This document shows, piece after piece, positions 1,448 to 55,886 of a stretch of DNA of 64,000 nucleotides. Both the position numbers and the translations under genes were made by a program. Location of the stretch: assembly GCA_965205975.1 (NCBI GenBank), contig OZ242195.1, positions 144,202-208,201 of the forward strand, given 5' to 3'. The notes below the pieces were generated by a model that was given only the letters and a program-made list of their open reading frames with translations, searched no databases and had not been told where the DNA came from. This stretch comes from Candidatus Latescibacterota bacterium. GTDB lineage: Bacteria; Latescibacterota; UBA2968. How positions within the stretch are numbered: the stretch's first letter is position 1; each line of letters opens with the position of its first letter.

Positions 1448-3193
1448 TTATTTTTTTACCACTGGACCTGTAGGCGCTTCCTTGCTGTACAATGTACTGC
1501 CTCGCTCGTAAGACGAGACGACTGAACCGTCGGCAATTTCCAATCTGGGTACGTTTTTTTCGAATACATCGCGGTCGGGTCCGCGCATGACTGCCATCTG
1601 TTCGTCGGTCATGCCCGAGACGAGATCGCCCCACCGTTTTTCTGGATGGGTCAATTCTCCTCCGCTGCGATTGAAATTGCGCGATGAGTATTTGTGCAAA
1701 ATTCCCCGCCGCGAGATGTCGCTTTTCCACGCCAATGTGCCATGTGTGGTGCCTCCGTCCATGAAGAAGAGCACATCGCCCGCTTTCATTTCGACGTGTT
1801 TGACCAATCCCATGTGGTCATCGCAGGTGCGCACGCCCGGGGGGAGTGAATAATACGCTTTGTGCGATCCCGGCACACACGCAAACCCACCGTCGGCTTC
1901 GGTCACGTCGCGCAATTGCCATGTCACAGTTACGGCTTCGCAATAGCTTCGCCCATTTTGATAGATATATCCGCGCCCTGGATTGAGTGGCTCATTGGAG
2001 TCGTGCAGGGAATGGCCCGATGTGCCTTTGACCGCACAAAATGCCGTTCCTCCGCCCGTGCGACCACCACTGGCACCCATCCAGTTTAGCCGATGTTCAA
2101 CGGCCGGATGGGCGAGCATTCTTCGAAATGGGTCACAATGGGGACCGGGCAACTGAGTCAGTCCACTTAACAGGGGTCTGCCCGTGCCCGCGAGGCTTTT
2201 TGACCCGCGTGCGAGTTCGTCGCCAACGACGATTCGATCTTCAAATTTGTCAATGGCGGCATTGGCCTGTGTCAGCCATTCACCATCCATGATCCCGCGC
2301 AGTACCAGGTACCCGTTTAAGTCCCAAAAGTAAAATTCTTTTTCGTCAATGCCCGAATTTGGATTTTTAATCAGGTAAGATGGGTGAAAAATTTCGCGGG
2401 ATTCGTCCAATGTGATTGTCTCGCCATCTGTTTTCAAAGTCGGTGGCGGCGTTGTATTGCGATATCCGGGGCGATATAGTGATGCGCGCTGTTCAGGTGT
2501 TAGTTCTGCCATTGAGTCGGATACTGGCATTTTATCTGATTCAGGGCTAGGTCCCGCAGAACGGATCACACCGCGGCCTACATATTCGTAGGATAGTAAG
2601 CGTTGCAGTCCCTCGCCTTGCCACGGACGCATGCCCTGTACTACGCTCAGGCCAACGATGAGCATATCGCCCGCTTTTAATTCGGGTTGAAAAAGATAAT
2701 CCGAGTCATCTACACCGGTCAATATATCTTCTGGTGTTTCCACATTTGACTTGTGTGTACACGGTACGAATACAAATCCGCCGTCGCCAGCTTTTACGTC
2801 CGAGAGTGCCCAGATTACGCGCACGCCTTCGCAAAATCTTCGACCGTTCTGGTAATAATATGCGAGTGCGGGATCTCGCGGCTCATTGCCACCTGCCAGG
2901 GGGGCAGAGGTGTCACAGGTTTCGTTACACAGAATTTCGGGGGCGCGGTCGAGCCTGAAACCGTGTCCCACAATTTGATTCAGATACCACACGAGTTGGG
3001 GATGGATCAACAAATCGCGGAATGGCTCGCGCAAATCATCTTCCCATCCGAGCATGCCCTCGAGCGATCCCGCCCGATCAATCGCATCGTTCAACCGCGC
3101 GACTTCGGGACGGGTCAGGACCCCCGATATATGCAAATAGCCCGTTAAATCAAAGGCGTAATTCTCTTCGTTTGTCATCGTTTCCCGGTCCAT
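1448..3193 (-). CDS. tandem-duplicated phytanoyl-CoA dioxygenase (PhyH) family protein: a degenerate N-terminal copy plus an intact C-terminal copy
   Basis: Two homologous ~280-aa halves. Copy 1 has YAFDLTGYLHISGVLTRPEVARLNDAID ... YYYQNGRRFCEGVRVIWALSDVKAGDGGFVFVPCTHKS. Copy 2 has FYFWDLNGYLVLRGIMDGEWLTQANAAIDK ... YIYQNGRSYCEAVTVTWQLRDVTEADGGFACVPGSHKA. Copy 2 keeps the HD metal-ligand pair (SLHDSNEP) and the distal His (TTHGT); copy 1 has GG and no distal His. An AAGGAGG RBS precedes the ATG at 3193. Confidence 0.7.
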   Translation of the reverse strand: MDRETMTNEENYAFDLTGYLHISGVLTRPEVARLNDAIDRAGSLEGMLGWEDDLREPFRDLLIHPQLVWYLNQIVGHGFRLDRAPEILCNETCDTSAPLAGGNEPRDPALAYYYQNGRRFCEGVRVIWALSDVKAGDGGFVFVPCTHKSNVETPEDILTGVDDSDYLFQPELKAGDMLIVGLSVVQGMRPWQGEGLQRLLSYEYVGRGVIRSAGPSPESDKMPVSDSMAELTPEQRASLYRPGYRNTTPPPTLKTDGETITLDESREIFHPSYLIKNPNSGIDEKEFYFWDLNGYLVLRGIMDGEWLTQANAAIDKFEDRIVVGDELARGSKSLAGTGRPLLSGLTQLPGPHCDPFRRMLAHPAVEHRLNWMGASGGRTGGGTAFCAVKGTSGHSLHDSNEPLNPGRGYIYQNGRSYCEAVTVTWQLRDVTEADGGFACVPGSHKAYYSLPPGVRTCDDHMGLVKHVEMKAGDVLFFMDGGTTHGTLAWKSDISRRGILHKYSSRNFNRSGGELTHPEKRWGDLVSGMTDEQMAVMRGPDRDVFEKNVPRLEIADGSVVSSYERGSTLYSKEAPTGPVVKK

Positions 3194-3305
3194 GTCAGCC
3201 TCCTTGACCTCGATTTACCTGTTTGCCTGCCGGTATGCAGGCATGAATGTGGCGGTTTATTCATGAAATGTTCAAATTGATGCAAAAAACAAGTATAAAA
3301 TGAAA

Positions 3306-3333
3306 CCCCTCTTGACCGATTGCTTGACGCATC
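3306..3333. repeat. 28-bp direct repeat, copy 1 (cccctcttgaccgattgcttgacgcatc)
   Basis: Near-identical copy at 4375..4404 (ccccttcttgaaccgattgcttgacgtatc). Each lies about 110-150 bp upstream, in gene orientation, of a minus-strand gene (starts 3193 and 4225). Internally it contains GTCAAG-N6-GTCAAG on the minus strand. Confidence 0.6.
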
Positions 3334-3409
3334 CTCAAAACTATCTATACAAAAAAACTGCCCATATAAATAGAAATGGGCAGTTTGATGATTCATTCTG
3401 AAGTACAGT

Positions 3410-4225
3410 TTAGTTTCTTTTTTCGGGAATGCTCCCTTCCTTAATCATGCGATTTTCTGGAGGGGCAGGTCGCTCCGGTGGGGTCGATGGTGGGGGATTT
3501 GCTGGCGAATTAGATGGTGGGGGATTTGCTGGCGAATTAGATGGTGGGGTACTCTCGCGGTTCATCGTTTTTTCCTCCAATGAAGAAATTTCATGAAAAT
3601 TATCTATTCGAATCCGGTGGATTTTTTCTGGTTTATTAAGATCCGCATACAGGAAAGGCACGCTACACACCAAGGCACTACATAGCGTAAAAATAAGAAA
3701 TAAATTGGCCGAATGCAACCTTTCAGATTTTGAGTCATTATTCCAGGTATTTTCATTTGTCGCTGAAATATACTTTTGGGACAAAAATTCTTGGAAATCT
3801 TGTTCCGCTAACTCCTCAGGTTCTGGATAGTCCTTTTCCCTGGGTTCTACACCATAATATTCCTCTAAAGACTTATAGTAATCAGATAAATTTCTATGAT
3901 GCTGAAGCAATTCGTCGTAGTAGGTTTTGAGCTCTCCAGGTGTCTCAATAAAAGCGTACGTGCGTCCATAAAAAGATCGTATAAGATGGTAAACGGCTTT
4001 TAAAAAGAATATCGTTGATATCCCTAAAAAAAGTAAAAAAATGAACGTGGTAGGAGTTGAGAAATCATAGGGAAATTCTTTTACAAAAAATCCTAATAGA
4101 CCCCCCAAAACAATTAAAACTCCTGTGGGTAAATTGAGGGATGTTCTGAGTTGATTTTTGCGTTCTATTTCCAACAAATACTGATCTTTGATAAAATCAA
4201 AATCCATTCCTATAGATTTCCTCAC
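3410..4225 (-). CDS. hypothetical membrane protein (3 predicted TM helices) with a C-terminal PPSNSPANP tandem repeat
   Basis: 271-aa ORF with an AGGAAA RBS and hydrophobic segments LPTGVLIVLGGLLGFFV, TFIFLLFLGISTIFFL and LFLIFTLCSALVCSVPFLY. The C-terminus is PPSNSPANPPPSNSPANPPPSTPPERPAPPENR. The gene is about 38% GC against roughly 52% in the flanks. No family could be recognised. Confidence 0.5.
   Translation of the reverse strand: MRKSIGMDFDFIKDQYLLEIERKNQLRTSLNLPTGVLIVLGGLLGFFVKEFPYDFSTPTTFIFLLFLGISTIFFLKAVYHLIRSFYGRTYAFIETPGELKTYYDELLQHHRNLSDYYKSLEEYYGVEPREKDYPEPEELAEQDFQEFLSQKYISATNENTWNNDSKSERLHSANLFLIFTLCSALVCSVPFLYADLNKPEKIHRIRIDNFHEISSLEEKTMNRESTPPSNSPANPPPSNSPANPPPSTPPERPAPPENRMIKEGSIPEKRN
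3487..3549. repeat. 27-bp tandem repeat, 2.3 units (atggtgggggatttgctggcgaattag)
   Basis: Read directly in the sequence. The units are in frame and encode the PPSNSPANP repeats of the 3410..4225 protein. Confidence 0.8.
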
Positions 4226-4374
4226 CTAAGAACATTAGTATGGTTTAGAAGCTATTTTAAAATTTCTAACAGCGCAGACACTACCTGATGCCCAGTGTGG
4301 TGACTTTTCAGTAAATAATACGAGAGAAGGCAGTTCAATGCAACCTTGGATTCTTCATGGAAAGCCCAAACTGA

Positions 4375-4404
4375 GCCCCTTCTTGAACCGATTGCTTGAC
4401 GTAT
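4375..4404. repeat. 28-30 bp direct repeat, copy 2
   Basis: See copy 1 at 3306..3333. It lies in the divergent intergenic region between the membrane-protein gene and the PLD-helicase gene. Confidence 0.6.
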
Positions 4405-4489
4405 CTGATGGGTCTTTGTACATTGCCCTAATTCTTTTTGTGAATACCATGACTGAGTAACTTCATTTGATGATTTAAGGACACTATTT

Positions 4490-5443
4490 ATGACTACCCA
4501 TTCCGACCTCACATTCATCACAAATGAAAAAGGCCAAAATCTTCTTGAGCGGTTTAAGGTGCTGATCAAAGACACAGAATTTTTTGATGTCCTCGTCGGC
4601 TATTTTTATACCAGTGGTTTCCACGCGCTTTATCGATCACTGGAGAGAACGAAAAAGATCAGAATTCTCATCGGTATCAGCACGAATAGGCAAACACTCA
4701 ATCTGATTGAGCAGGCACGCCAGCAAGAGCTTCAATTTTCCCACGCGGAGACGAAGGAGCATTTTTCCGATCTACTTATTGGAGAGATGGCAAATGTTGA
4801 AGATAACAAGAAGGTTGAACAAGGAGTGACAAAGTTTTTGGAGTGGCTGAAAATCGGAAAGTTGGAGATTAAGGCGTATCCCACGGAGAATATCCATGCC
4901 AAGCTCTACATCATGTCTTTCGGTGAGGACGACCGTGACGTTGGGCGTGTGATCACCGGGTCGAGCAACTTCACGCAGTCCGGCCTGGTAGATAATCTTG
5001 AGTTCAATGTAGAACTCAAGATGCGCTCCGATTATGACTTTGCCAGGCAGAAGTTTGAATATCTCTGGGGAAATGCTGTTGATGTGAAAGATAAATATAT
5101 TGAGACCATTCAGAAAAACACATGGCTTAATAATGCTATTACTCCCTACGAGCTTTATCTCAAGTTTCTCTATGAATATTTCAAGGATGAGCTTCGCCAA
5201 ACCGATGAAGTGATCTTCAAGTACATTCCAACGGGGTTTAAGCGACTGGAATATCAGGAACAGGCCGTCCTGAACGCAAAAAAGATTCTTGAAGAGTACG
5301 GTGGGGTTTTTATTTCAGATGTCGTGGGACTTGGAAAAACTTATGTATCCGCCATGCTGGCAGGCCAATTGTGGAGTTACCCCGCTTCGGTGGAGAGTTT
5401 AGGGCTTGTGTATCAAGCCTGTGATAGATGCAACTTTTCATAA
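4490..5443 (+). pseudogene. 5' fragment of a PLD-family nuclease / SNF2-like SF2 helicase fusion gene, truncated after helicase motif I
   Basis: The HKD phospholipase-D nuclease motif is present (HAKLYIM..x..GSSNFTQSG). The helicase Q-motif and Walker A follow (YQEQAV ... DVVGLGKTYVSAML). The ORF then ends abruptly at 5443, where the IS3 remnant begins. Proteins of this architecture are usually around 1000 aa. The fragment is about 40% GC, with an AAGGA RBS. Confidence 0.65.
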
Positions 5444-5444
5444 G

Positions 5445-5906
5445 CTATCGGCGCATAGTAGGCGATGGAAGAATGCCTGCGATGCGGATTATACCATCCT
5501 TCCAAGTGGGTACATAAGTGATGTCAGCCACAGTGAGTTTATTGACCGTTGGCACAGTAAAGTCGCGCTTTACCAGATCAGGAGCCTTATCAGACCGTTG
5601 CGCCTTACGCGTCGTTTGCGTGCTCTTGCGGCGAGAAACGCCACAAATGCCCATCTCACGCATCAGACGCGCTACGCGCTTCTTACCTACAAGGATACCC
5701 ATATCCATCAGGTCTTTAAAGATGCGAGGGGCACCATAGGTGCTATCTGATCGGGTATGAAAGGTCTTGATATGCTTCTTCAAGTCTGCATCAACCTTTG
5801 CTCGTTTAGAGGGTGGACCTGCTCGCCAGGCATAATACCCACTGAGGGAAACACCCAGGACTCGGCATTGCGTGGCGATAGGCCAAAGGGCCTGGTGCGC
5901 TTTCAC
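5445..5906 (-). pseudogene. IS3-family transposase OrfB, N-terminal fragment only
   Basis: See the mobile element entry. The catalytic rve domain is absent. Confidence 0.7.
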
Positions 5907-6217
5907 GAACGCGAAGATTTTCCAGGGATCGCGTCGGTCTCCGCTGCGAACCAGGCCGCTGCTTTTGACAATATCTCGCGCTCGATGCGCAACTGCTTAT
6001 TCTCACGTCGAAGACGACGTAACTCTTCGCGCTCATCGCTCTTCAGACCATCTTCTCGAAGGCCCTCATCTCGATCAGCCTGGCGTATCCAGTTTTGGAT
6101 CGTCTGAGCGGTTGGCTCAAACTCTTTGGCCAACTCGGATGGAGAGCGACCAGCGCGCACAAGCTCAACGATCTGGCGCTTCAACTCGGATGGATAAGGC
6201 GGACGTGTTGGTGGCAT
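5903..6217 (-). CDS. IS3-family transposase OrfA (HTH)
   Basis: See the mobile element entry. 104 aa with a GAAAGGAG RBS. Confidence 0.75.
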   Translation of the reverse strand: MPPTRPPYPSELKRQIVELVRAGRSPSELAKEFEPTAQTIQNWIRQADRDEGLREDGLKSDEREELRRLRRENKQLRIEREILSKAAAWFAAETDAIPGKSSRS

Positions 6218-6620
6218 AGTGGGTCTCCTTTCTTACTACTCATAAGGTACCCACCGAAACGGGTCAAGTCCATCAGAAAGTTACTACTTAAAGATGAGAA
6301 GTTTGCTCACATCCGCTACCTTGATCCTGAGAATCAAAAAAGCCAAAAGAAGCAACTCTATAATCCCAACATTCTGCAAGAGTTGGATAAGTATTACCGG
6401 AAGCATGAGAAGTCTGATAAGCGCTCGTGATTTCTTGCTATATTCGCTATGCGTAGTGTTATTATCTCCTGATCCGGAACTATGGGTATCTTGATAGTGC
6501 CGAAACCAAACCCATTATGAAAAACCAAAATGTAATCGGAAGATCAGCAAATCGTGGATCTGTGGACTTGATAGATATTGCTGAACAAGGTGTGGATGAA
6601 TAGTTTTGATAGGTATCACA

Positions 6621-8054
6621 ATGGCAAGGTCTCGTCCCAATATCGTACTTGTAATGTGCGACCAGATGCGCTGGGATGCGGCTGGTTTTGCGGGTAGTTC
6701 TGTTGTTCACACGCCCCATCTGGATCGTCTATCCGAGGGTGGTGTGTGCTTTGAAAATGCCTATTGCGCTTCTCCTGTTTGTTCGCCCGCTCGGGCGAGT
6801 TGGTTAACCGGGTGCTATCCCCATGCTCACTTGCAATTGCGAAATTACGGGCCACAACGAGGAAAAGACTGGGGGAGTTATCTGCCGCAGGACCGCGTTA
6901 CAATGGGGGATGTTTTGAAACGCGCGGGATATCGCTGTGGCATGGTTGGTCCGTGGCATCTGGGCGATGATCATGCCCCGCAACACGGGTTTGAGGATTT
7001 CTGGCAGACCTATCGATATCTCGGCGACGAATATACAGATCCTCTTTTCGATTATTTCGAACGCGAGGGGGTACCCAATCTCTACAGCGATAAGGAAGCC
7101 GTCACGCAATACGGAAATATTCTGGCGTTTACGACACTTACAGATCCGCGACAGCAGCGTACGACCTGGACGGTTGACCGCGCGATTGATTTTTTGCGCC
7201 AGCGAGAAGATGACCCGTTTTTTCTTTTTGTGAGTGTTAAGGATCCGCATCCCCTCATCGTTATCCCACCCGAATTGCTTGAACTCTATCCGGTAGATCA
7301 AATGCCCTTGCCTGATTCTCTGCGAGACCCACTTGAGGGTAAACCGGATTTTCAAACCCGCACAAAATTTCGCATGCCCAATACAGTGACAGATCGGCAG
7401 TTCCGCGAGATGATGGCGTACTATTACGCCCTGATCACCCATATTGATGCGGAGGTCGGGCGTCTGATTGGCGTTCTTGAAGAACAGAATATGCGCGACA
7501 ATACGCTCGTGGTTTTTATGAGCGATCACGGCGAACTGCTCGGCGATCACGGTTGCACAGAAAAGTGTCTGATGTACGAAGCCTCGGTCAGAGTTCCTTG
7601 TCTGCTTTCGTGGCCGCGTGCGCTCCCAATGGGTTTGCGCGTGACGACCCCGCTTGCCGGTGTTGATTTGATGCCGACTTTGCTCGATCTGGCAAACGAG
7701 GCGTTGCCCGAGAAAATCGATGGTCGTTCCGTTGCGGACGCGATCCTGAATGGTCGGCAGCCGAAACCTCAGCCCATTTTTGCCGAAATAGCCAGCCAGG
7801 AAGCCATTTATTGGGGGTCAACAGAAAGGGAGCAGTTTGCCGCGCATGTGATGAATTTCGATGGTCGCTGGAAGTATATTCGCAATCGTTTTGATATCGA
7901 TGAATTGTACGATTTAGAGACAGATCCGGGCGAAATGCAAAATCTCGCGCAGCTTTCCGAATATCAACCGCGCATTATAGCTATGCGCCAGCAAATCGCC
8001 GAGATGATTTGCCATACAGGCCCTGGTCCCTACGACTGGTGTTTGCAAGTGTAG
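6621..8054 (+). CDS. sulfatase (formylglycine-dependent arylsulfatase family), no signal peptide
   Basis: N-terminus MARSRPNIVLVMCDQMRWD and the sulfatase signature C-S-P-A-R in AYCASPVCSPARASWLTG. The C-terminal GDHG motif is also present (SDHGELLGDHG). Confidence 0.85.
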   Translation: MARSRPNIVLVMCDQMRWDAAGFAGSSVVHTPHLDRLSEGGVCFENAYCASPVCSPARASWLTGCYPHAHLQLRNYGPQRGKDWGSYLPQDRVTMGDVLKRAGYRCGMVGPWHLGDDHAPQHGFEDFWQTYRYLGDEYTDPLFDYFEREGVPNLYSDKEAVTQYGNILAFTTLTDPRQQRTTWTVDRAIDFLRQREDDPFFLFVSVKDPHPLIVIPPELLELYPVDQMPLPDSLRDPLEGKPDFQTRTKFRMPNTVTDRQFREMMAYYYALITHIDAEVGRLIGVLEEQNMRDNTLVVFMSDHGELLGDHGCTEKCLMYEASVRVPCLLSWPRALPMGLRVTTPLAGVDLMPTLLDLANEALPEKIDGRSVADAILNGRQPKPQPIFAEIASQEAIYWGSTEREQFAAHVMNFDGRWKYIRNRFDIDELYDLETDPGEMQNLAQLSEYQPRIIAMRQQIAEMICHTGPGPYDWCLQV

Positions 8055-16197: not shown

Positions 16198-16582
16198 TGG
16201 TGGAGGCGGCGGGAATCGAACCCGCGTCCGAAAGCAGTTTGATAACGGCATCTACGTGTGTAGTCTATTCACTTAGGATCTCGCATCTCGCGCCCCAACA
16301 GACAGGGTCGCTGAGATGCCAGCCCGATGGTTGGGGCTGTGGCCCGCTCTCATCCGGAGGCCCTCGAGCGGAAACCCCCGCACCAGCCTGCTCTCGTCGG
16401 CGCTCTGCCCAGACCACGCAGGCAAGGTCTGAGAGAACGGACTGCGTAACGGTTAGTTAGGCAGCCATTGCGTACGTGTTATCGTCCGCAGTTGCGTTTT
16501 TTCCCAATTGTTTTACGAGGTGATTGGGCACCTCGACACGCAGCTATTATCTCCCCACCCCCGTCGAAGCCGTGTCGCCCCC
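16198..16582 (-). ncRNA. ssrA: transfer-messenger RNA (tmRNA, SsrA)
   Basis: The 5' end is GGGGGCGACACGGCTTCGACGGGGGTG, the tmRNA tRNA-like 5' consensus. The 3' end is GCGGGTTCGATTCCCGCCGCCTCCACCA (T-arm plus acceptor/CCA). The internal tag reading frame is GCA ACT GCG GAC GAT AAC ACG TAC GCA ATG GCT GCC TAA, giving ...ATADDNTYAMAA-stop, matching the canonical ...YALAA degradation tag. Confidence 0.9.
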
Positions 16583-17581: not shown

Positions 17582-18928
17582 TTATAATTTAAAGACGTGA
17601 TCTTTCTTTCCAGATACAGCCTGCGTGGCATTGCGCGTATCGACAATACAGCGCGCGTGCCTTACAATCCATTCATAATCCCAATCGCTGTGATGTGTCA
17701 CGATCACCACACAATGGGCATCAGTTATATTTTTTTTGTTTAAAGAGATACTTTTCAAGTCCAAACTTTCTGTCTGCAAGTGATCTACAAACGGATCGCA
17801 ATACGAGACCTTCGCGCCTTTCTCCTGAAGCATTTCTATAATATCCAATGCCGGTGACTCGCGAATATCGCGTACATCGGGTTTGTATGTCACGCCCAAT
17901 ATCAGGATGTTCGAGCCTTTCAAACACCGCTCGTGTTCGTTGAGGGCGTCGGTGATTTTTTCGACCACATAGCCCGGCATGCTGCGCGTCACTTCGCTGG
18001 CCAATTCGATAAAGCGCGCATTGTAATTCAAGGTCTTGAGCTTCCAGGCCAGAAAGTGAGGATCAACCGGGATGCAATGCCCGCCCAATCCAGGACCGGG
18101 ATAAAACGGCATAAATCCAAACGGCTTGGTCGCTGCGGCATCGATTACTTCCCAAACATCCACACCGAGGCGATCACACATCAGTGCCACTTCATTGACA
18201 AGGCCGATATTTACACTGCGAAATGTATTTTCCAGCAACTTGGTCATTTCTGCGGCCTGGGTCGATGAGACCGGTACGACTTCGCCGATTGATTGTCGGT
18301 AAAAATGTGTGCCTATTTCTGTGCAAGAAGGGGTAATACCACCCACGACTTTGGGCGTGTTGGTGATGGTATAAACCCTGTTGCCTGGATCGACGCGCTC
18401 TGGAGAAAATACCAGAAAAAAATCTCGACCGACCTTCAAGCCACTTTCTTCGAGCAGGGGCAATACCAGTTCATGGGTCGTGCCTGGATACGTCGTGCTT
18501 TCCAGAATTACCAGTTGTCCACAGCGCAGATGGTCTTTGATTGCACCACATGCCTGCAAAATAAACGAGACATCCGGGTCGCGTGTTTTATTTAAGGGTG
18601 TGGGCACGCATACCACAACCACATCGGCCTCATCGAGCACATCGCATTCTCGAGTTGCCGTCAATTTCCCCACAGCTTTGAGACCCGCTACTTCAAATTC
18701 CGATACACCCTGCACGTCGGACTTTCCCGATTCTACTATCTTTACTTTGCGTGCCGATATATCGATTCCCGTGACACAAAATCCCACCTTGCCCAATTCC
18801 ACGGATAGGGTCAATCCCACATACCCCAATCCCATCACCGCTATCCGCGCTTCGTGCGATGCGATCTTTTCTTCCAGTATCTGTCTGGGGTTGGCGATTT
18901 CTCGAGATAATCTTTCTGGTATAGCCAT
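17582..18928 (-). CDS. nucleotide-sugar dehydrogenase (UDP-glucose / UDP-N-acetyl-D-mannosamine 6-dehydrogenase family)
   Basis: [30 protein letters not shown] is the NAD-binding GxGxxG motif ... catalytic Cys region GGHCIPVDP. The start MAIPERL at 18928 forms a TAATG overlap with the upstream gene's stop. Confidence 0.8.
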
Positions 18929-19857
18929 TATGTTATCCGCTCTGGTCCAATCATTTGAAGCAATACGGCCTTTTGAACGTGCATGCGATTCTCTGCTTGA
19001 TCCACAGCAATGCATCGCTCGCTTGCCATGACTTCATCTGTCACTTCGTATCCCTTATGTGCTGGCAAGCAGTGCATCACATAAGCGTCGGTCTTTTTGA
19101 GCAAATCGCCATTGATCTGATATGGCATGAATACTTTGGTGCGTCGCTTTTTTTCTTCTGCAAATTCTGGATTGTTAAAAAATTCCATATCAATCCACGT
19201 ATCGGTATAAAGAAAATCTGCATCGGCAATAGCGGCTTCCAGATCCAGCGTTTCTTCAAATAACCCGGTTGCACGCGCTGCTTTGACCAGTTCGGGGTCT
19301 GCCGATGGTTTGTTGATCTCTGGCGTCACAGCCGTTATGCGTACGCCGGCTTTTGTACACGCTGTTACCAGCGAATTACACACATTGTTCCAGATGCCCA
19401 CATAAACCACATGCGTTCCCGCCAACTTGCCTCGCACTTCCAGGATTGATAGCAGATCGCCCAGGGCTTGACAGGGGTGATAACGGTCACAACATCCGTT
19501 GATTACAGGGACTTCGGAGCCAAGGGTCAGCCGCAGCAGATCTTCGTGTTTGAGCATGCGCGCCATAATCACATCTGCATATCGCGATAGGACCTGTGCT
19601 TCATCGCGCACATCGGCCAATCCAAAATTGGTGGTCATCCAGTCCAAAAACACGGCCTGCCCCCCCAATTGGTGCATGCCTACTTCAAAAGCTACGCGGG
19701 TGCGCGTTGATGTTTTCTGAAATAACATCGCCATAGTTTGTCCCGTTAGCAAACCTTCATAGCGCTCGGGATTCTTTTTGATCACCAGACCCATTTCTAC
19801 CGCACGCAAAATATCATCTGGCGACCACGTCTTCAGTGTCAAAAGATCCATATCCAT
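18928..19857 (-). CDS. ornithine-carbamoyltransferase-family transcarbamylase with a non-canonical second-substrate motif
   Basis: The carbamoyl-phosphate motifs STRTR and HPCQ, and HCLPAHKGYEVTDEV, are OTC-like. The ornithine-binding DxxxSMG motif is replaced by YTDTWIDMEF. The gene is translationally coupled to the nucleotide-sugar dehydrogenase. Confidence 0.65.
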   Translation of the reverse strand: MDMDLLTLKTWSPDDILRAVEMGLVIKKNPERYEGLLTGQTMAMLFQKTSTRTRVAFEVGMHQLGGQAVFLDWMTTNFGLADVRDEAQVLSRYADVIMARMLKHEDLLRLTLGSEVPVINGCCDRYHPCQALGDLLSILEVRGKLAGTHVVYVGIWNNVCNSLVTACTKAGVRITAVTPEINKPSADPELVKAARATGLFEETLDLEAAIADADFLYTDTWIDMEFFNNPEFAEEKKRRTKVFMPYQINGDLLKKTDAYVMHCLPAHKGYEVTDEVMASERCIAVDQAENRMHVQKAVLLQMIGPERIT

Positions 19858-20944: not shown

Positions 20945-21535
20945 TCAATGTTTGAAAATCTGCTCGTACTGGCGTTTGCGTTGCAGCAAAATTTGCTGTC
21001 GCCGCTTCTGCGAACGGAGTATGGTGAACAGAATATTTACCCGTTTGCGCGCCGCTCGCAATACCTGAACATCCCGCTGGTCCTGATCCTTTAATCGGGA
21101 CAAATACAGCAGGCACTGGGCCGCATCTCGTAGCGACTTCGCCGAAAACAGTACTGATAGTATTCCCTGTCGTCCTATTTTGTATATTTCACGCACACGT
21201 TGTGCTATATTCTGTTCGCGATTTTTAAGTTGTGACTGAGCCTGTCGAAGCTGTTGCTCAGTACGGTCGATTTCATTATTCAGACTATTGACTTCTTCAG
21301 CCAGATTCAAAGATGTGTCCCGCGCCTTCTCACCCTCGCTTTCTGGTTGATTCTGTACCGATGCTTCAGATGAGGACCGGGAGTTTAAGTCACGCGCTTT
21401 TAAGCTGTCCATCGCAGCTTGCTCAGCTTTCAGACGCGCTTCCAGCGCTGTTATAGTCTGCGCGCTTCCATTGGGAGATAATGCGAGTAGAAAAGTTATT
21501 ATACACAATATATATTTTTGCACGCCATACCTCAA
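20945..21535 (-). CDS. secreted coiled-coil protein, possible FtsEX partner (EnvC-like coiled coil without an M23 domain)
   Basis: Signal peptide MRYGVQKYILCIITFLLALSPNGSAQ, then about 150 aa of heptad-rich, Q/E/R/L-rich sequence. It sits immediately downstream of ftsX on the same strand. Confidence 0.5.
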   Translation of the reverse strand: MRYGVQKYILCIITFLLALSPNGSAQTITALEARLKAEQAAMDSLKARDLNSRSSSEASVQNQPESEGEKARDTSLNLAEEVNSLNNEIDRTEQQLRQAQSQLKNREQNIAQRVREIYKIGRQGILSVLFSAKSLRDAAQCLLYLSRLKDQDQRDVQVLRAARKRVNILFTILRSQKRRQQILLQRKRQYEQIFKH

Positions 21536-21550
21536 TGGACAGGCACTGCC

Positions 21551-22408
21551 CTACGCGATTTCTCTTAACAGGCGGTTCAGAGATGCCCAACTACCTATCG
21601 CGCCGAGCACGGTGCCCAATACCACCAGACCGAATGCCAGTTCAATCGTTGGTGTGACCGTCAAGTCCGGTACGCGAACAGCCCACGAGGGTGATATATA
21701 AGCCATCATCAGAGGTGCCAAAAATCCACCGACAAAGCCCAATAGTGCCCCCCCAACTCCAAAGATCATCCACACAGTCGTATTTGTCGCGCCGACCAAC
21801 CGCATAATCTCAAGGGCATCGCGCTGCGCCAGCACCATCAACTTGGTTGCATGGCTCACTGCAAATACACACGCAAAACACAGCATACACCCAAGTGCGA
21901 GCCCAATTCCGGTGGTTACTTCAATAAAATGCTCTAAAGAATCCACCCAAACTTCACCTACGTTTACACCTTCTACAGCACTATGGCTGGCTACATATCT
22001 TGCAACGGCTCGAGCGCGGCGCGGCATATTCTCGCCGGGAGAAATGCGTACTCTAAGCGAAGCGGGCAATGGGTTGCTCGAAAGCGCATCGACCGTACCC
22101 AAACCAAATAGTGACCGAAATTCTTTGGCAGCCGCTTCCTGATCCATATACACAATCCCGCCTACCTCGGGTCTCGCTTCTAACCTGCGCCGCAACGCGA
22201 GTATTCGCTGAGATGAAACGCCATCTTTCAGGTAAATGTCTATCTCCACCCGCGTGCGCAATCGGTTAGCCAGAGCGTTTCCACTCTCGATCACCTGCCA
22301 AAAGAATCCCAATACCAGCAGTGAGGCTCCAATGGTCACCACTGAAATCACACCTGCGATTCCCGTGCGCCTGATCCCTTGCAATGCCTCGCGCAATACT
22401 AGATTCAT
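21551..22408 (-). CDS. ftsX: cell division ABC transporter permease FtsX
   Basis: MNLVLREALQGIRRTGIAGVISVVTIGASLLVLGFFW ... a periplasmic loop and three C-terminal TM helices (the FtsX/MacB 4-TM fold). The start is taken at the ATG at 22408; a TTG at 22429 is an alternative. Confidence 0.8.
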   Translation of the reverse strand: MNLVLREALQGIRRTGIAGVISVVTIGASLLVLGFFWQVIESGNALANRLRTRVEIDIYLKDGVSSQRILALRRRLEARPEVGGIVYMDQEAAAKEFRSLFGLGTVDALSSNPLPASLRVRISPGENMPRRARAVARYVASHSAVEGVNVGEVWVDSLEHFIEVTTGIGLALGCMLCFACVFAVSHATKLMVLAQRDALEIMRLVGATNTTVWMIFGVGGALLGFVGGFLAPLMMAYISPSWAVRVPDLTVTPTIELAFGLVVLGTVLGAIGSWASLNRLLREIA

Positions 22409-22425
22409 TTCACTTTTCCATTTGT

Positions 22426-23091
22426 TCAATTTGCAATCTGTTCAATGACCTCATTTTCCAATTGCAATATTCGCCGCGAATATCGGTCTTCTATCGCTGT
22501 ATTATGTGTCGCTATGATCACAGCTATTCCGCGTACATTCATTTTTTGAAAAATAGCCATCACCTGTTCTGTCGCTTCGGAATCCAAATTGGCGGTTGGT
22601 TCATCTGCCAACAAGATAAGGGGATCATTCACCAGTGCCCGCGCTATTGCTACCCGCAGCCGTTCATAAGCCGACAACTCATCTGGATACGCATTGCGTT
22701 TGTAAAGCAAATCCACATCTGATAATATCGCCTGAGTTTTGCGCTTGATCCTGCGCCGCGAAACGCCTTTTACTTCAAGCGCTAAGGCCACATTTTCAGA
22801 TACGGTGCGATGGTGCAATAATTTGAAGTCTTGAAATACTACGCCTACTTGCCTTCGCAACTGCGGGATATCTATTTTTCGAATTTGCTGCGAGTCGTAT
22901 TTTCCCACAGATACCACGCCCGAACTGGGTAATTCCTCAAATATAATCAGCCCGAATAGCGCGCGTTTTTCCGCCTCTGTGTGTCCAGTCAGATAGACGA
23001 ATTCGCCCTGATTGATCTCTAAGTTGGCATTGATCAATATCGGCTGACCTCGCTGCTCGACCCGCACGTTTTGTAATTTAATCACTGGCAT
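22426..23091 (-). CDS. ftsE: FtsE-like ABC ATPase with degenerate Walker A and signature motifs
   Basis: Overall FtsE-like: GEFVYLTG ... Q-loop VGVVFQDF ... Walker B ILLADEPT ... H-loop IIATHN. Walker A reads HTEAEKRALF instead of HSGAGKSTLL (both glycines changed to E, S/T changed to R/A). The ABC signature reads LSAYERLRV instead of LSGGEQQRV. The start at the ATG at 23091 (MPVIKLQ) is tentative. Confidence 0.75.
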   Translation of the reverse strand: MPVIKLQNVRVEQRGQPILINANLEINQGEFVYLTGHTEAEKRALFGLIIFEELPSSGVVSVGKYDSQQIRKIDIPQLRRQVGVVFQDFKLLHHRTVSENVALALEVKGVSRRRIKRKTQAILSDVDLLYKRNAYPDELSAYERLRVAIARALVNDPLILLADEPTANLDSEATEQVMAIFQKMNVRGIAVIIATHNTAIEDRYSRRILQLENEVIEQIAN

Positions 23092-23133
23092 GATGTACAA
23101 CTGCATCAGCAGTTCCAATATCCATTTCTTAAA

Positions 23134-29924: not shown

Positions 29925-30002
29925 TGGCGGGGTAGACGGGGCTCGAACCCGCGACCACCGGCGTGACAGGCCGGTACTCTAACCAGACTGAGCTACTACC
30001 CC
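29925..30002 (-). tRNA. tRNA-Asp (GTC)
   Basis: GGGGTAGTAGCTCAGTCTGGTTAGAGTACCGGCCTGTCACGCCGGTGGTCGCGGGTTCGAGCCCCGTCTACCCCGCCA folds into a cloverleaf with a 7-bp acceptor stem, anticodon loop CTGTCAC and an encoded CCA. Confidence 0.9.
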
Positions 30003-30234: not shown

Positions 30235-33200
30235 ATGACTCGACGCGATGCTGTATGGGTTGTTTGCTTCCTGATCGCAGGTGCGCTCGGTCTCACCTGT
30301 TATATCCAGTTTTTTGACCGCGCGCAGCCCGTTGCCTCGCTCAATTTTCGCGTGGATCGCGAACAAGCACATCAGGCTGCCGAGGCGTATCTTCACCGCC
30401 TGGGTTACGATCTCACAGATTATGAAAGTGCTCAGGTTTTCTCTTACTCCAGTCTGCCCCAGGTCTTTCTCGAACGCACCCTGGGCCTTGAGGAAGCCAA
30501 CCGCCTCGTGCGCGAATGGGTCTCGGTATGGTACTGGAACATCCGCTGGTTTAAGCCGCTTCAAAAAGAAGAACTCCGCGTGCGTATTGATCCCGGCGGA
30601 AGAATTGTAGGGTTTACGCACAGCATTCTCGAATCTGACGAAGGCGCGAGTCTTTCAGAAGAAGATGCCCGTGTTATTGCGGAGGTTTTTTTGACCGATG
30701 TGCAGGGCTTTCAACTCGATGATTACGAATCCATCGAAGCGTCGAGTATTGAGCGTCCCAATCGGATGGATCACACCTTTACTTATCGAAAAAAAGATTT
30801 TGTCTTGGGCGATGATGGGCACTACCGTTTGAGCGTTACGGTTAAGGGTGATAAAGCAGGCTATTTTGCCGAATACCTCAAAGTGCCCGAAACATTTTCG
30901 CGCAATTATCGAGAAATTCGCTCGCGTGCGGGCTTACTTACAAATATTGCTTCGATTTTCTTTTTCGCACTGGGCATTGCAATGGTTGTCGTGCTCGTGC
31001 GAAAATATCGCCAGCACACATTGATATGGCGCGCTGCTCTCGCCGTAGGCATTCTCGTAGCCGCCACCAGTTTCCTCGGTGTCATCAATGGCTACCCGCT
31101 TACGCGCTTCGGTTACGATACCACGCAGTCATTTGTTTCCTTTATTCTTACCTTTATCTTCGGCGGTCTGTTGAGTGCCGTGCTCAGCGGGATTATTATC
31201 GCGCTGTCCGGCGCAGCCGGGGGGGCTGCCGCTCAGGATGTAGAAGGCTGGAAAAATCCACTCGCGCGACTGTCTCTGCGCGGCTGGCGATCGGCGAATT
31301 TTGCGCGCATTACCCTCATCGGTTACGGACTTGCATTTGCACACCTGGGATATGTCACCATCTTTTATATTTTGGGCAATGACTATCTGGGGGTCTGGTC
31401 TCCCGCGGCGATGACACAGTACAGCAATACGTATAGCACATACTTGCCGTGGATCTATCCTTTGCTTATCGGTCTCCTCGCCGCAACTATGGAAGAGTTT
31501 TTCTTTCGCCTGCTCGCCATTTCCCTGCTCATCCGGTATTTAAAAAGCACCTGGTTGGCCGTTCTCATCCCCGCGATTATATGGGCTTTTTTGCATGCGA
31601 ATTATCCGCAGGAGCCTATTTATATTCGCGGTCTTGAACTCACCGTAGTAGGGGTCATATTTGGTATTGTGTTTTTGCGCTACGGTGTTTGGGCAACCAT
31701 TATTTCGCATTATGTGTACAATTGCTTTCTCGGCATTTACCCGATGGTGCAGTCCGATAGTCTCTACTTCAAGGTCTCGGGCATTCTGGCGGTCGCGATT
31801 ATTTTTATTCCGGCCATTCCCGCTATTTTTGGTGTGATCACAGGGCGGTATAAAGAGGTAGAGGGGCCTGAAGAGGTGGCTCCCCCTGAGCTGCCAGAGG
31901 ATACAGCACCTGAAACAGCAATGCCCGAATCCGAACCACCCTCTGAACCCGAGGTCGAACGCAAAACCCCTTCGGATTATCTCATTCCCAAGAGTGGTCT
32001 CGTCGTTTTTGGCGTTCTGGGTCTGATCGGTTGGTCCGTGTATTTCATGTCCGACCTTCCGGGATTTGCCAAATACGCCCGCGAGTCCATTATCACGCGA
32101 GCCGAGGCGATTGAGAAGGCAGAGGATATCCGGCGTCAACTCGGACTCGATCTCGAAGGCTATCAACGCACCACATCGTTTTCCAGCAGTTTTAGATCCG
32201 GCCATTTTACACATCTCATCCGAAATGTCGATCTGGCGCGTGCAGATACGCTCGCTGCCGAGCACACAGCCTCCTGGCGCTGGAGGGTGCGATGGTTCAA
32301 ACCTCTGGAAAAGGAAGAAATCACCATCAGTATTGATGGCAATGGCGATTTTTGCCGCATATCGCATTATGTTCCCGAAAGTCGGGAGGGCGCAGAACTC
32401 AGTACGGAAGAAGCGCAAAAGATCGCCGGGGCTTTTCTGTCCGAATACTTACAGCGCGATGTGACAGATCCCGCACTTTACAAACGCCTTGAAGCCCGCT
32501 CGCAAAAGCGCGAAAACCGAATGGACCATAGCTTTGTGTGGGAGCGTACAGATATCAAAGTTGAAGAAGGAGAATTTCGTATTATCGCCTCTGTGCAGGG
32601 CGATCAGATTGGGCATGCATATAAAGCCTACAAAGCACCCGAAGAGTTTTTGCGCAAATTGCGAGAACGCACGGCCAAAAGTACGATTGTTTCTACTGTC
32701 TCGACAATCGCAGTTCTTGCCACCGCTGTGCTCGCCATTATTTTCTTTTTGCGCGCTTATCGCGATGGACATGTCAACTGGCAATTGCCCATTCGTGTTG
32801 GCATTCTGGCTGGTCTGTGTTTTTTCTTCGAAAGACTCAATAATCTACCTGTGTTCTATAGAGGTTATAATACCAGTGAAGCGATGAGTACCTTTCTCGG
32901 CGGTGAACTCATTGGTCTCGTCATAGATCTTGTTATTGCTGCGATTATGGCTTTTTTATTATGTGCATTTGGCGATACGATGTATCGCCGCGAACGCCCC
33001 CAAGAGATGCAAATTTCCGATTGGATCGATGTGCTTCGTTTGAAGATAAATAGCACAGCACTCTGGTGGCAGATTGTCTTTCTCGCTATCTGCTATTTTG
33101 GGATTACCAGAGGTAACAGTATTTTTTCGTCTTATGTCACCCTCACCTATCTCGGCGACTACCTCGGTGCGGGTGGTGGTGCGCCTCCCGAAATCAACAG

Positions 33201-33633
33201 CTATTTCCCCGCATTTGGCGAACTCATTGATGAAGTTGGCAGTATGCTCATAGCTCCCTTTGCCATTCTGGGTATTCTGTTTGTCTGGTGGCGTGTGATA
33301 GGCAAGATAAATCTGCTGATTCTCGGCGTAGTGCTCGTGCTTATCTTTCAATCTGTGGTCTCTCCAGCGAAAGACTTTTACCACGCAGGTATTCTTCTCG
33401 CTAAAAGCATTCCATATTGGATACTTATGGCTTTCCTCATTTTGAAATATATTCGCTTTAACTTTCTCTTTTACGCCGTAACCCTCTGGTGTTCAATTAT
33501 TTTTGTTGGCGTTCGCTATCTCAAATACGATCCCAGTATTTACCAGATCAATGGCATTCTCATGATTCTTTTTGGCTGCGTTCCCCTCATTCTCGCCGTT
33601 CTGGCCTGGTACAAAGCGCGATCTACGGCGTAA
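30235..33633 (+). CDS. 1132-aa membrane protein: tandem duplication of [extracytoplasmic domain + multi-TM CPBP (CAAX/Abi) intramembrane protease domain], second copy degenerate
   Basis: Copy 1 carries the CPBP motifs EEFFFR (EExxxR), AFLHA (FxxxH) and SHYVYN (HxxxN). The extracytoplasmic modules are homologous (WYWNIRWFKPLQKEELRVRIDPGGRIVGFTHSILESDEGASLSEEDARVIAEVFL against WRWRVRWFKPLEKEEITISIDGNGDFCRISHYVPESREGAELSTEEAQKIAGAFL). The second TM block keeps FYHA but reads GELIDEV where EExxxR would be and has no HxxxN. The two halves are joined by an acidic, Pro-rich linker. An AAGGAG RBS is present. Confidence 0.7.
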   Translation: MTRRDAVWVVCFLIAGALGLTCYIQFFDRAQPVASLNFRVDREQAHQAAEAYLHRLGYDLTDYESAQVFSYSSLPQVFLERTLGLEEANRLVREWVSVWYWNIRWFKPLQKEELRVRIDPGGRIVGFTHSILESDEGASLSEEDARVIAEVFLTDVQGFQLDDYESIEASSIERPNRMDHTFTYRKKDFVLGDDGHYRLSVTVKGDKAGYFAEYLKVPETFSRNYREIRSRAGLLTNIASIFFFALGIAMVVVLVRKYRQHTLIWRAALAVGILVAATSFLGVINGYPLTRFGYDTTQSFVSFILTFIFGGLLSAVLSGIIIALSGAAGGAAAQDVEGWKNPLARLSLRGWRSANFARITLIGYGLAFAHLGYVTIFYILGNDYLGVWSPAAMTQYSNTYSTYLPWIYPLLIGLLAATMEEFFFRLLAISLLIRYLKSTWLAVLIPAIIWAFLHANYPQEPIYIRGLELTVVGVIFGIVFLRYGVWATIISHYVYNCFLGIYPMVQSDSLYFKVSGILAVAIIFIPAIPAIFGVITGRYKEVEGPEEVAPPELPEDTAPETAMPESEPPSEPEVERKTPSDYLIPKSGLVVFGVLGLIGWSVYFMSDLPGFAKYARESIITRAEAIEKAEDIRRQLGLDLEGYQRTTSFSSSFRSGHFTHLIRNVDLARADTLAAEHTASWRWRVRWFKPLEKEEITISIDGNGDFCRISHYVPESREGAELSTEEAQKIAGAFLSEYLQRDVTDPALYKRLEARSQKRENRMDHSFVWERTDIKVEEGEFRIIASVQGDQIGHAYKAYKAPEEFLRKLRERTAKSTIVSTVSTIAVLATAVLAIIFFLRAYRDGHVNWQLPIRVGILAGLCFFFERLNNLPVFYRGYNTSEAMSTFLGGELIGLVIDLVIAAIMAFLLCAFGDTMYRRERPQEMQISDWIDVLRLKINSTALWWQIVFLAICYFGITRGNSIFSSYVTLTYLGDYLGAGGGAPPEINSYFPAFGELIDEVGSMLIAPFAILGILFVWWRVIGKINLLILGVVLVLIFQSVVSPAKDFYHAGILLAKSIPYWILMAFLILKYIRFNFLFYAVTLWCSIIFVGVRYLKYDPSIYQINGILMILFGCVPLILAVLAWYKARSTA

Positions 33634-55810: not shown

Positions 55811-55886
<76 letters not shown>

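Follow-up and report, generated by a model that had tools for sequence, protein, structure and literature searches.

In a 64-kb stretch of contig OZ242195.1 from a Candidatus Latescibacterota bacterium, the whole of which is called the window here, positions 20945-23118 carry a vertically inherited ftsE-ftsX-envC operon in which both the cytoplasmic motor and the periplasmic effector have been altered. The ATP site of FtsE is degenerate in its Walker A and signature motifs, and the EnvC-type partner is reduced to its coiled coil. We believe that this predicted pseudo-ATPase FtsEX and its headless EnvC probably serve an ATP-independent scaffold role. FtsEX is the textbook ATP-binding cassette (ABC) "mechanotransmitter", in which a coiled coil in the periplasm moves when ATP is bound on the cytoplasmic side, thus freeing the LytM domain of EnvC to activate the septal amidases. 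That the FtsE ATP site and the EnvC LytM domain were lost together is the new and most informative result, and it was missed by the initial annotation of this DNA.

The region is filled by three co-oriented open reading frames (ORFs) on the minus strand, ftsE, ftsX and the gene of the coiled-coil partner. The ftsE ORF as listed spans 22426-23118 from a TTG start at 23118; the real start is probably the ATG at 23091, where most relatives begin and with which the sequence context agrees, and FtsE residues are numbered from it. The resulting gene (22426..23091, -) encodes 221 residues beginning MPVIKLQ, and its matches to ABC_tran and FtsE, together with synteny, identify it as an ftsE orthologue that encodes a predicted pseudo-ATPase. 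The Pfam match to ABC_tran (PF00005, 2.7e-21) covers model positions 3-137 of 137, and the top NCBIfam family is TIGR02673 (FtsE) at 226.8 bits, under the curated cut-off of 264.85, with the runner-up family at 146 bits. The best twelve relatives of solved structure are all FtsE chains, with 6Z4W first (1.5e-47) and an alignment running end to end, and the protein is accordingly assigned the fold of an ABC nucleotide-binding domain, as judged from its sequence. The ftsX gene (21551..22408, -; ATG start, 285 residues) begins 17 nt after the ftsE stop codon and is intact. It encodes the extracellular and four-transmembrane permease-like domains typical of FtsX, with Pfam matches to FtsX_ECD (PF18075, 3.7e-14) and FtsX (PF02687, 2.2e-6) and an NCBIfam match to TIGR00439 that spans the full length (4-292) at 185.1 bits against a cut-off of 255. 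Five hallmark positions of FtsX deviate from the pan-bacterial consensus; they were considered as changes tied to the FtsE degeneracy, but the canonical sister lineages have them too, and this link was rejected. Scans for promoters and terminators gave nothing above shuffled expectation.

Two of the motifs that build the ATP site of FtsE are badly damaged. The Walker A motif, or P-loop (22960..22986, -), reads G36-H-T-E-A-E-K-R-A44 against the consensus GxxGxGK[ST][ST]: both invariant glycines are changed to Glu, Ser/Thr43 to Arg and Thr44 to Ala, and only Lys42 is kept. The ABC signature (22651..22677, -) reads L139-S-A-Y-E-R-L-R-V147 against LSGGEQQRV. With GHTEAEKRA and LSAYE in these places, the window FtsE lacks the consensus Walker A and the LSGGQ/E signature that define FtsE membership. 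Other elements of the site are kept in the window, namely the Walker B motif ILLADEPT (22594..22617, -), which is followed by an intact D-loop (ANLD), the H-loop His196 (22504..22506, -) and the Q-loop Gln87 (22831..22833, -).

To place these changes, 102 cluster representatives of the clade were compared with 93 canonical FtsEs, 13 from the sister lineages and 80 from other phyla; the latter are the FtsE/FtsX loci among the matches listed in the contig scan, at 39-51% identity. G39, G41, G142, Q145 and H196 are invariant in all 93 canonical proteins. In the clade, G39 is Glu or Asp in 98%, G41 is Glu in 97%, Ser/Thr43 is Arg in 97% and Thr44 is Ala in 97%, and in the signature G142 has become Tyr, Glu or Asp and Q145 Leu in every sequence, giving consensus motifs of G[HQ]T[ED]AEKRA and LS[GA][YED]E[RQ]LRV over the 102 sequences. 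The first Walker A glycine, G36, is itself replaced by Glu, Lys or Val in several clusters (P0102, P0006-P0012; LTEHTEAEKRA, LTKHTEAEKRA, LIVHTELKKHA), and this residual glycine is thus not kept in every cluster of the clade. The initial annotation had reported the degenerate Walker A and signature, and both hold when reread from the DNA. It had also described Walker B, the Q-loop and the H-loop as intact; this is correct for the window but does not extend to the clade, where H196 is Arg in 73% of sequences and Q87 is Arg in 10%. D163 and E164 of Walker B are conserved in 100% of both the core clade and the canonical proteins. At 55 positions the 93 canonical FtsEs are at least 90% conserved, and seven of these have a new majority residue in the clade. 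Six of the seven belong to motifs of the ATP site (Fisher p = 0.0097), and of the 34 conserved positions elsewhere 33 are kept; the lesions thus target the nucleotide site and the rest of FtsE is preserved. Glu stands in place of the glycine by which the P-loop can wrap around the phosphates, the Ser/Thr pair that coordinates Mg has become Arg and Ala, and the Gly-Gly of the signature is gone; the prediction is therefore that FtsE of this clade can no longer bind ATP or hydrolyse it.

The degenerate state is a property of a lineage. A search for close relatives in 5.8 billion proteins returned about 100 clusters, drawn from NCBI, ENA, JGI and Logan assemblies, with 77-92% identity to the window FtsE (74-92% for the 102 representatives compared above), all with the same lesions, and several of these relatives lie on contigs of 4.7-10.3 Mb, long-read ones among them. 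Among the matches listed, canonical motifs occur in no relative above 68% identity. Those that follow, at 59-67% identity, are fully canonical (GQTGSGKST, LSGGERQRV, ATHD) and are labelled "Ca. Latescibacteria" or "cell division ATP-binding protein FtsE" in their sources. The NCBI label on members of the degenerate clade is "Gemmatimonadota bacterium", and the metagenome-assembled genomes of the sisters are labelled "Ca. Latescibacteria". In a second search of 1.84 billion proteins by representatives, the clade and its sisters fell into one cluster at 50% identity (P0030), and none of the 149 other nearest 50%-identity representatives was without a canonical Walker A. By this comparison the degenerate state of FtsE appears unusual. 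An error of sequencing, assembly or frame in the window has a negligible chance of explaining it and was rejected, as the identical residues recur in more than 100 independent clusters from all four sources, including long-read contigs of megabase scale, and the ORF runs in one unbroken frame whose product can be aligned over its whole length with solved FtsE structures. The initial annotation had raised a mis-framed N-terminal region and canonical close relatives as possibilities; the frame is correct, and the close relatives share the degeneracy.

The degenerate gene is also the ancestral ftsE. DNA was fetched around eight degenerate loci representing six FtsE clusters (L081-L083, L087, L088, L091-L093) and around five canonical loci, three of which (L084, L086, L089) contain a complete partner gene. 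Twelve genes stand in the same order in the window, in the eight degenerate loci and in the five canonical ones: mfd, a peptidyl-prolyl isomerase gene, surA, an S4-domain gene, a methyltransferase gene, ftsE, ftsX, the partner, a DHH phosphoesterase gene and the genes for ornithine carbamoyltransferase (OTCase), UDP-glucose dehydrogenase and an epimerase. This shared order means that the degenerate gene is not a paralogue. Its place 17 nt upstream of ftsX, the synteny and the congruent gene trees described below all agree with orthology to canonical ftsE.

The second loss lies in the partner gene (20945..21535, -; alternative GTG start at 21523), an envC orthologue that encodes 196 residues, predicted to consist of a signal peptide and an antiparallel coiled-coil hairpin only. 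In all nine degenerate loci, the window included, the partner has 187-209 residues and matches CC_PcsB at most, with no M23 domain, whereas in all three complete canonical loci it has 379-413 residues and both CC_PcsB and Peptidase_M23. The pattern extends to the homologues of the truncated partner, 67 of 67 clusters having 129-223 residues and no M23. The lesions in the ATP site of FtsE therefore coincide with the loss of the restraining arm and the LytM domain of its partner. The identity of the complete form is clear: the best solved match of the sister partner is EnvC in the FtsEX-EnvC complex (8TZK_E, 4e-25 over the full length), followed by others such as 8I6O_E, 4BH5 and 6TPI, and its LytM domain has NRGIN at the place of the catalytic M23 HxxxD, thus making it an EnvC-type amidase activator. 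The window partner aligns with the N-terminal half of the 413-residue sister protein with 44% identity over 195 residues (blastp 1.6e-44). On its own it gives weak, sub-threshold matches to CC_PcsB in Pfam and to the EnvC N-terminal region in NCBIfam, and it has no Pfam match to Peptidase_M23 (PF01551), which bears out the statement in the initial annotation that the downstream coiled-coil protein has no M23/LytM domain. It ends at residue 196, 33 nt before the next gene, and has neither the restraining arm nor the C-terminal degenerate LytM domain that belong to the EnvC family (NF008644).

In E. coli EnvC, helices I and II of the hairpin span residues 40-123 and 152-214, the restraining arm 222-278 and the LytM domain 278-419 (PMC7668044). 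By these limits the truncated partner is the coiled-coil domain alone, ending where the restraining arm would start. FtsX is bound at the tip of the E. coli hairpin through residues 114-128 and 141-160 (PMC7668044). The most conserved segment of the window partner, residues 113-165 (21041..21199, -; REIYKIGRQGILSVLFSAKSLRDAAQ...DQDQRD), is its predicted hairpin tip, with a mean majority-residue fraction of 0.90 against 0.61-0.83 elsewhere, and alignment through the sister protein to V. cholerae EnvC suggests that it is the counterpart of the two sites at which EnvC binds FtsX. The partner thus appears to have retained the FtsX-docking tip. An AlphaFold2 (AF2) model with a predicted local distance difference test (pLDDT) score of 77.5 shows a helical hairpin of residues 66-123 and 135-195. 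Its top two Foldseek matches in the PDB are FtsX-bound EnvC (6TPI_A, E = 0.14) and RipC of the FtsEX-RipC complex (8JIA_E), neither E-value being significant, and a profile search against PDB sequences gave only tropomyosin-like noise. When the missing C-terminal half of the sister EnvC was used as the query, close matches came solely from short contigs of the sister lineage and none from the megabase-size contigs of the clade, which argues, within the limited sensitivity of this search, that the M23 half was lost and not relocated.

The history of these losses can be read from the deeper branches. A neighbour-joining tree of four flanking genes is congruent with those of FtsE and FtsX and places the degenerate genomes in a single monophyletic group. 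The degenerate clade comprises a core and two deep branches, L087 and L088, with the canonical L089 as sister and L084 as outgroup, and the degenerate state has a single vertical origin. G41E and T44A in Walker A are common to all three sublineages; the rest of the site differs among them. L087 has the Walker A GQTGVENRA, with Lys changed to Asn, and a Q-loop Arg, and retains an intact LSGGEQQRV signature, the Walker B LLADEPT and the H-loop ATHD. L088 has the Walker A GQTSAETSA, with Lys changed to Thr, the signature LSGRERQRV, the Walker B LLIDDPT (Glu to Asp), the H-loop ATGD, with Gly for His, and again a Q-loop Arg. The core clade has the consensus motifs given above, LLADEPT, ATHD or ATR[DN], and a Q-loop Gln (Arg in the L093 subgroup). 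Differences among the three sublineages extend to the C-termini of the truncated partners. Most simply, the P-loop was inactivated once, in an ancestor, together with or close to the truncation of EnvC, and the other ATP-site residues, now free of constraint, then decayed independently. Such independent decay is what is expected of a real loss of nucleotide use, and it is hard to square with continued ATP binding.

All three genes are clearly under purifying selection, at a relaxed level. Within the core clade, where synonymous divergence reaches about 1, the ratio of nonsynonymous to synonymous divergence (dN/dS, Nei-Gojobori) is 0.22 for ftsE, 0.27 for ftsX and 0.23 for the partner, against 0.075-0.205 for eight flanking genes. 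Relative to OTCase, the dN of FtsE is 5.1x in the clade and 1.1x between two canonical sisters; relative to the methyltransferase, the values are 2.2x and 0.6x. FtsE thus evolves, relative to its neighbours, 3-5 times as fast as in the canonical sisters. The FtsE sequences examined were all free of frameshifts and premature stops.

Based on these observations, we propose that the operon has lost both ends of its ATP-powered output arm, the FtsE motor and the EnvC head. FtsE would be a pseudo-ATPase, with acidic and basic side chains in its P-loop and a signature that has lost its Gly-Gly and Gln. EnvC has been reduced to a hairpin predicted to dock on the periplasmic domain of FtsX, and the restraining arm, which is autoinhibitory, and the LytM domain, which activates amidases, are gone. 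The FtsE2-FtsX2-coiled-coil assembly would then most likely be a static, nucleotide-independent scaffold of the divisome. In such a role FtsE may join FtsX to FtsZ, and the FtsX-bound coiled coil may serve as a periplasmic structural element or docking site. Amidase activation by this complex would have ended, and the splitting of septal peptidoglycan may have passed to another route, for example a putative NlpD-type activator. There is a precedent in E. coli, where an FtsEX ATPase mutant rescues ftsEX phenotypes if it is unable to block division and NlpD is present (PMC7343993); FtsE also binds the FtsZ tail (PMC11627006). We favour the scaffold because the degeneracy is vertical and lineage-wide, the arm and LytM, the sole output known for the ATP power stroke, were lost with it, the ATP site is still decaying and the genes remain under purifying selection; of the two proposals made in the initial annotation, an ATP-independent scaffolding variant and teaming with a second ATPase, the former is the one that these data support.

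Several points weigh against this proposal. Conservation in the core clade is still 100% at Lys42, at the Asp-Glu pair of Walker B and in the D-loop, which could reflect a residual role in ligand binding or dimer contact. The raised dN/dS means that part of the constraint is gone. In E. coli, an N-terminal extension of FtsX of about 50 residues binds FtsA (PMC11627006); the window FtsX has a short N-terminus without it, and that FtsA contact is not obviously available. Finally, the AF2 model of FtsE is poor (mean pLDDT 60), falling below 50 at residues 1-71 (22879-23091, -), so the geometry of the P-loop is not readable from it. The model, built on a 32-sequence alignment, is confident only over residues 80-200, with pLDDT 75-96 over residues 90-190. 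The low confidence in the N-terminal beta-subdomain and the P-loop helix could be noise of a shallow alignment or a real loosening.

Two other explanations were considered. The complex could still be driven by ATP if a second canonical FtsE-like ATPase, encoded elsewhere, paired with the degenerate FtsE on FtsX or took its place. It is well known that ABC dimers can be asymmetric, with one of the two sites degenerate, and the conservation of Walker B, the D-loop and Lys42 in the core clade would suit such a partner. We nevertheless regard this as improbable. Such dimers keep one consensus ATP site and a working Walker A, and the window FtsE offers neither: its Walker A and signature are dead in one and the same chain, so each composite site of any dimer with it would have a dead half and no consensus site would form (for the geometry of the composite sites, see PMC11627006). 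Moreover, the degenerate gene is the ancestral, syntenic ftsE, the arm and LytM domain on which a power stroke would act are gone, the ATP-site residues continue to decay independently, and no other ABC ATPase, FtsX or M23 gene was found in the 64-kb window or within 10 kb on either side of the eight degenerate loci. A non-canonical switch is somewhat less improbable, though still unlikely. FtsE would bind a nucleotide or other ligand without hydrolysis, or the Glu/Arg P-loop would mimic a nucleotide, thus fixing FtsX and the coiled coil in an "on" or "off" state. The near-invariance of the new residues in the core (97-98% for Glu/Asp39, Glu41, Arg43 and Ala44, 100% for Leu145), beside Lys42, Asp163 and Glu164 at 100%, resembles a new constraint and not random drift. 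But the core clade is of modest divergence, with a mean identity of 84%, which makes 97% conservation at four sites a weak sign, and the structural model of FtsE is not of useful quality. The P-loops of L087 and L088 are moreover different and have no Lys, L088 being also without the Walker B Glu and the H-loop His, so any such switch would not be common to the whole degenerate group.

The faster evolution of the operon could also be taken as a sign that the three genes are a decaying remnant that has no function left and is on its way to becoming pseudogenes, in a genome like that of a symbiont. FtsE, FtsX and the partner are 2-3 times faster at nonsynonymous sites than most neighbours, and the acceleration of FtsE over its canonical sisters points the same way. 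The dN/dS values are nonetheless far below 1 over the synonymous divergences sampled, the three ORFs are intact in the window and the eight loci, as are FtsE in more than 100 clusters and the partner in 67, the conserved positions of FtsE outside the ATP site have been kept almost without exception, and the part of the partner that is best conserved is its predicted FtsX-binding tip. With no disrupted copy seen, this reading was rejected as very improbable. Returning to the scaffold, we also offer a bolder version of it, tentatively and with more doubt than trust. An ancient nucleotide-independent function of FtsEX might alone suffice for selection on the three genes, and evolution would have isolated it in this lineage; the Glu/Arg P-loop and the remodelled signature might mimic a nucleotide and so hold the FtsE dimer, and by way of FtsX the coiled coil, in a single conformation, and the bare coiled coil might itself be the effector, as a periplasmic spacer or a docking rod for an envelope factor.

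Other features of the window and the compared loci are recorded here. A full-length tmRNA gene (Rfam RF00023, 189.7 bits; 16198-16582, -) lies just downstream of the epimerase and UDP-glucose dehydrogenase genes, tRNA genes are at 29928-30002 (-) and 55814-55886 (-), and no rRNA was found in the window. The UDP-glucose dehydrogenase ORF as listed (17582-19015, -) overlaps that of OTCase (18928-19857, -) by 88 nt; its relatives start at the ATG at 18928 (448 residues), with which stop and start just overlap, as in L081-L093. The DHH/DHHA1 phosphoesterase, a single gene of 317-324 residues elsewhere, is split in L083 (12189-13143) into two overlapping ORFs of 132 and 204 residues, either by a frameshift or by an assembly error. 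Divergently beside mfd, the gene at 30235-33633 (+) encodes a 1132-residue protein with an Rce1-like CAAX protease domain and DUF4901 repeats; it is kept there in all core-clade loci (L081-L083, L091-L093) and is not there in L087 and L088. An ORF for a phospholipase D-like, NgoFVII-type nuclease (4490-5443, +) sits in the 2-kb bin of lowest GC content in the window (4001-6000, GC 0.444) and could have come in as a small insertion, mobile or for defence. The segment 6606-9025 (+) contains sulfatase and GH130 genes, and in L088 three sulfatases and an arylsulfotransferase (1652-7332) stand directly upstream of surA; this sulfatase-rich context fits the degradation of sulfated glycans, possibly in a sponge host, and together with the naming of the assemblies it raises the suspicion of a sponge symbiont.

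Genetics in E. coli has long pointed to ATP-independent roles of FtsEX in the divisome, which are hard to split from hydrolase activation. The lineage described here would be a natural separation-of-function experiment, in which loss of the motor residues went together with loss of the effector head and the putative three-protein scaffold persists under purifying selection across about one synonymous substitution per site. The canonical orthologues of the sister lineages, at 60-67% identity, provide controls for the study of a nucleotide-free FtsEX-coiled-coil complex. The EnvC coiled coil is apparently worth keeping without LytM, and FtsE would be a rare case of a presumably homodimeric ABC nucleotide-binding domain turned pseudoenzyme. 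A literature search of partial coverage found no report of an FtsE that is degenerate in nature, nor of any EnvC orthologue that lacks LytM. Proteins of the clade are currently annotated as "ATP-binding cassette domain-containing protein" or "cell division transport system ATP-binding protein", and these ATP-binding names should be read with caution.

The closest known system is FtsEX-EnvC, which activates amidases in Gram-negative bacteria (E. coli and P. aeruginosa as well as V. cholerae; 6TPI, 8I6O, 8TZK, 8HD0). The window operon resembles it in the three-gene module and its order, in the ABC nucleotide-binding domain fold of FtsE, in the FtsX_ECD and permease domains of FtsX and in a secreted partner with an antiparallel coiled-coil hairpin, which is predicted here; the sister lineage has the complete EnvC architecture. 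It differs in that its FtsE is predicted to have no functional Walker A or signature and its partner has neither restraining arm nor LytM domain. The known output of FtsEX-EnvC is the ATP-driven release of LytM, which activates AmiA and AmiB (PMC7668044), and this the window operon would be unable to deliver. In S. pneumoniae PcsB, M. tuberculosis RipC and B. subtilis CwlO, a coiled coil likewise docks on the extracellular domain of FtsX, and the weak CC_PcsB and non-significant RipC (8JIA_E) matches of the window partner recall them; those proteins carry a catalytic CHAP or NlpC/P60 domain, whereas the window partner has no second domain at all. In heterodimeric ABC exporters such as TM287/288, TAP1/2 and CFTR, one site is degenerate and still binds ATP, and the consensus second site does the work. 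These exporters are alike in having non-consensus residues in the signature, H-loop or Walker B, but in the window both half-sites of a presumably homodimeric nucleotide-binding domain are degenerate, Walker A included. The nearest functional parallel is found in the engineered E. coli FtsE mutants D162N and E163Q, with which an ATPase-dead FtsEX still assembles and fulfils some non-hydrolytic functions under some conditions (PMC7343993). These mutants keep ATP binding and block septal peptidoglycan synthesis, whereas in the window clade the P-loop itself is destroyed. Unlike them, the state described here is natural, ancient and fixed throughout its lineage, and it is joined with the truncation of EnvC.

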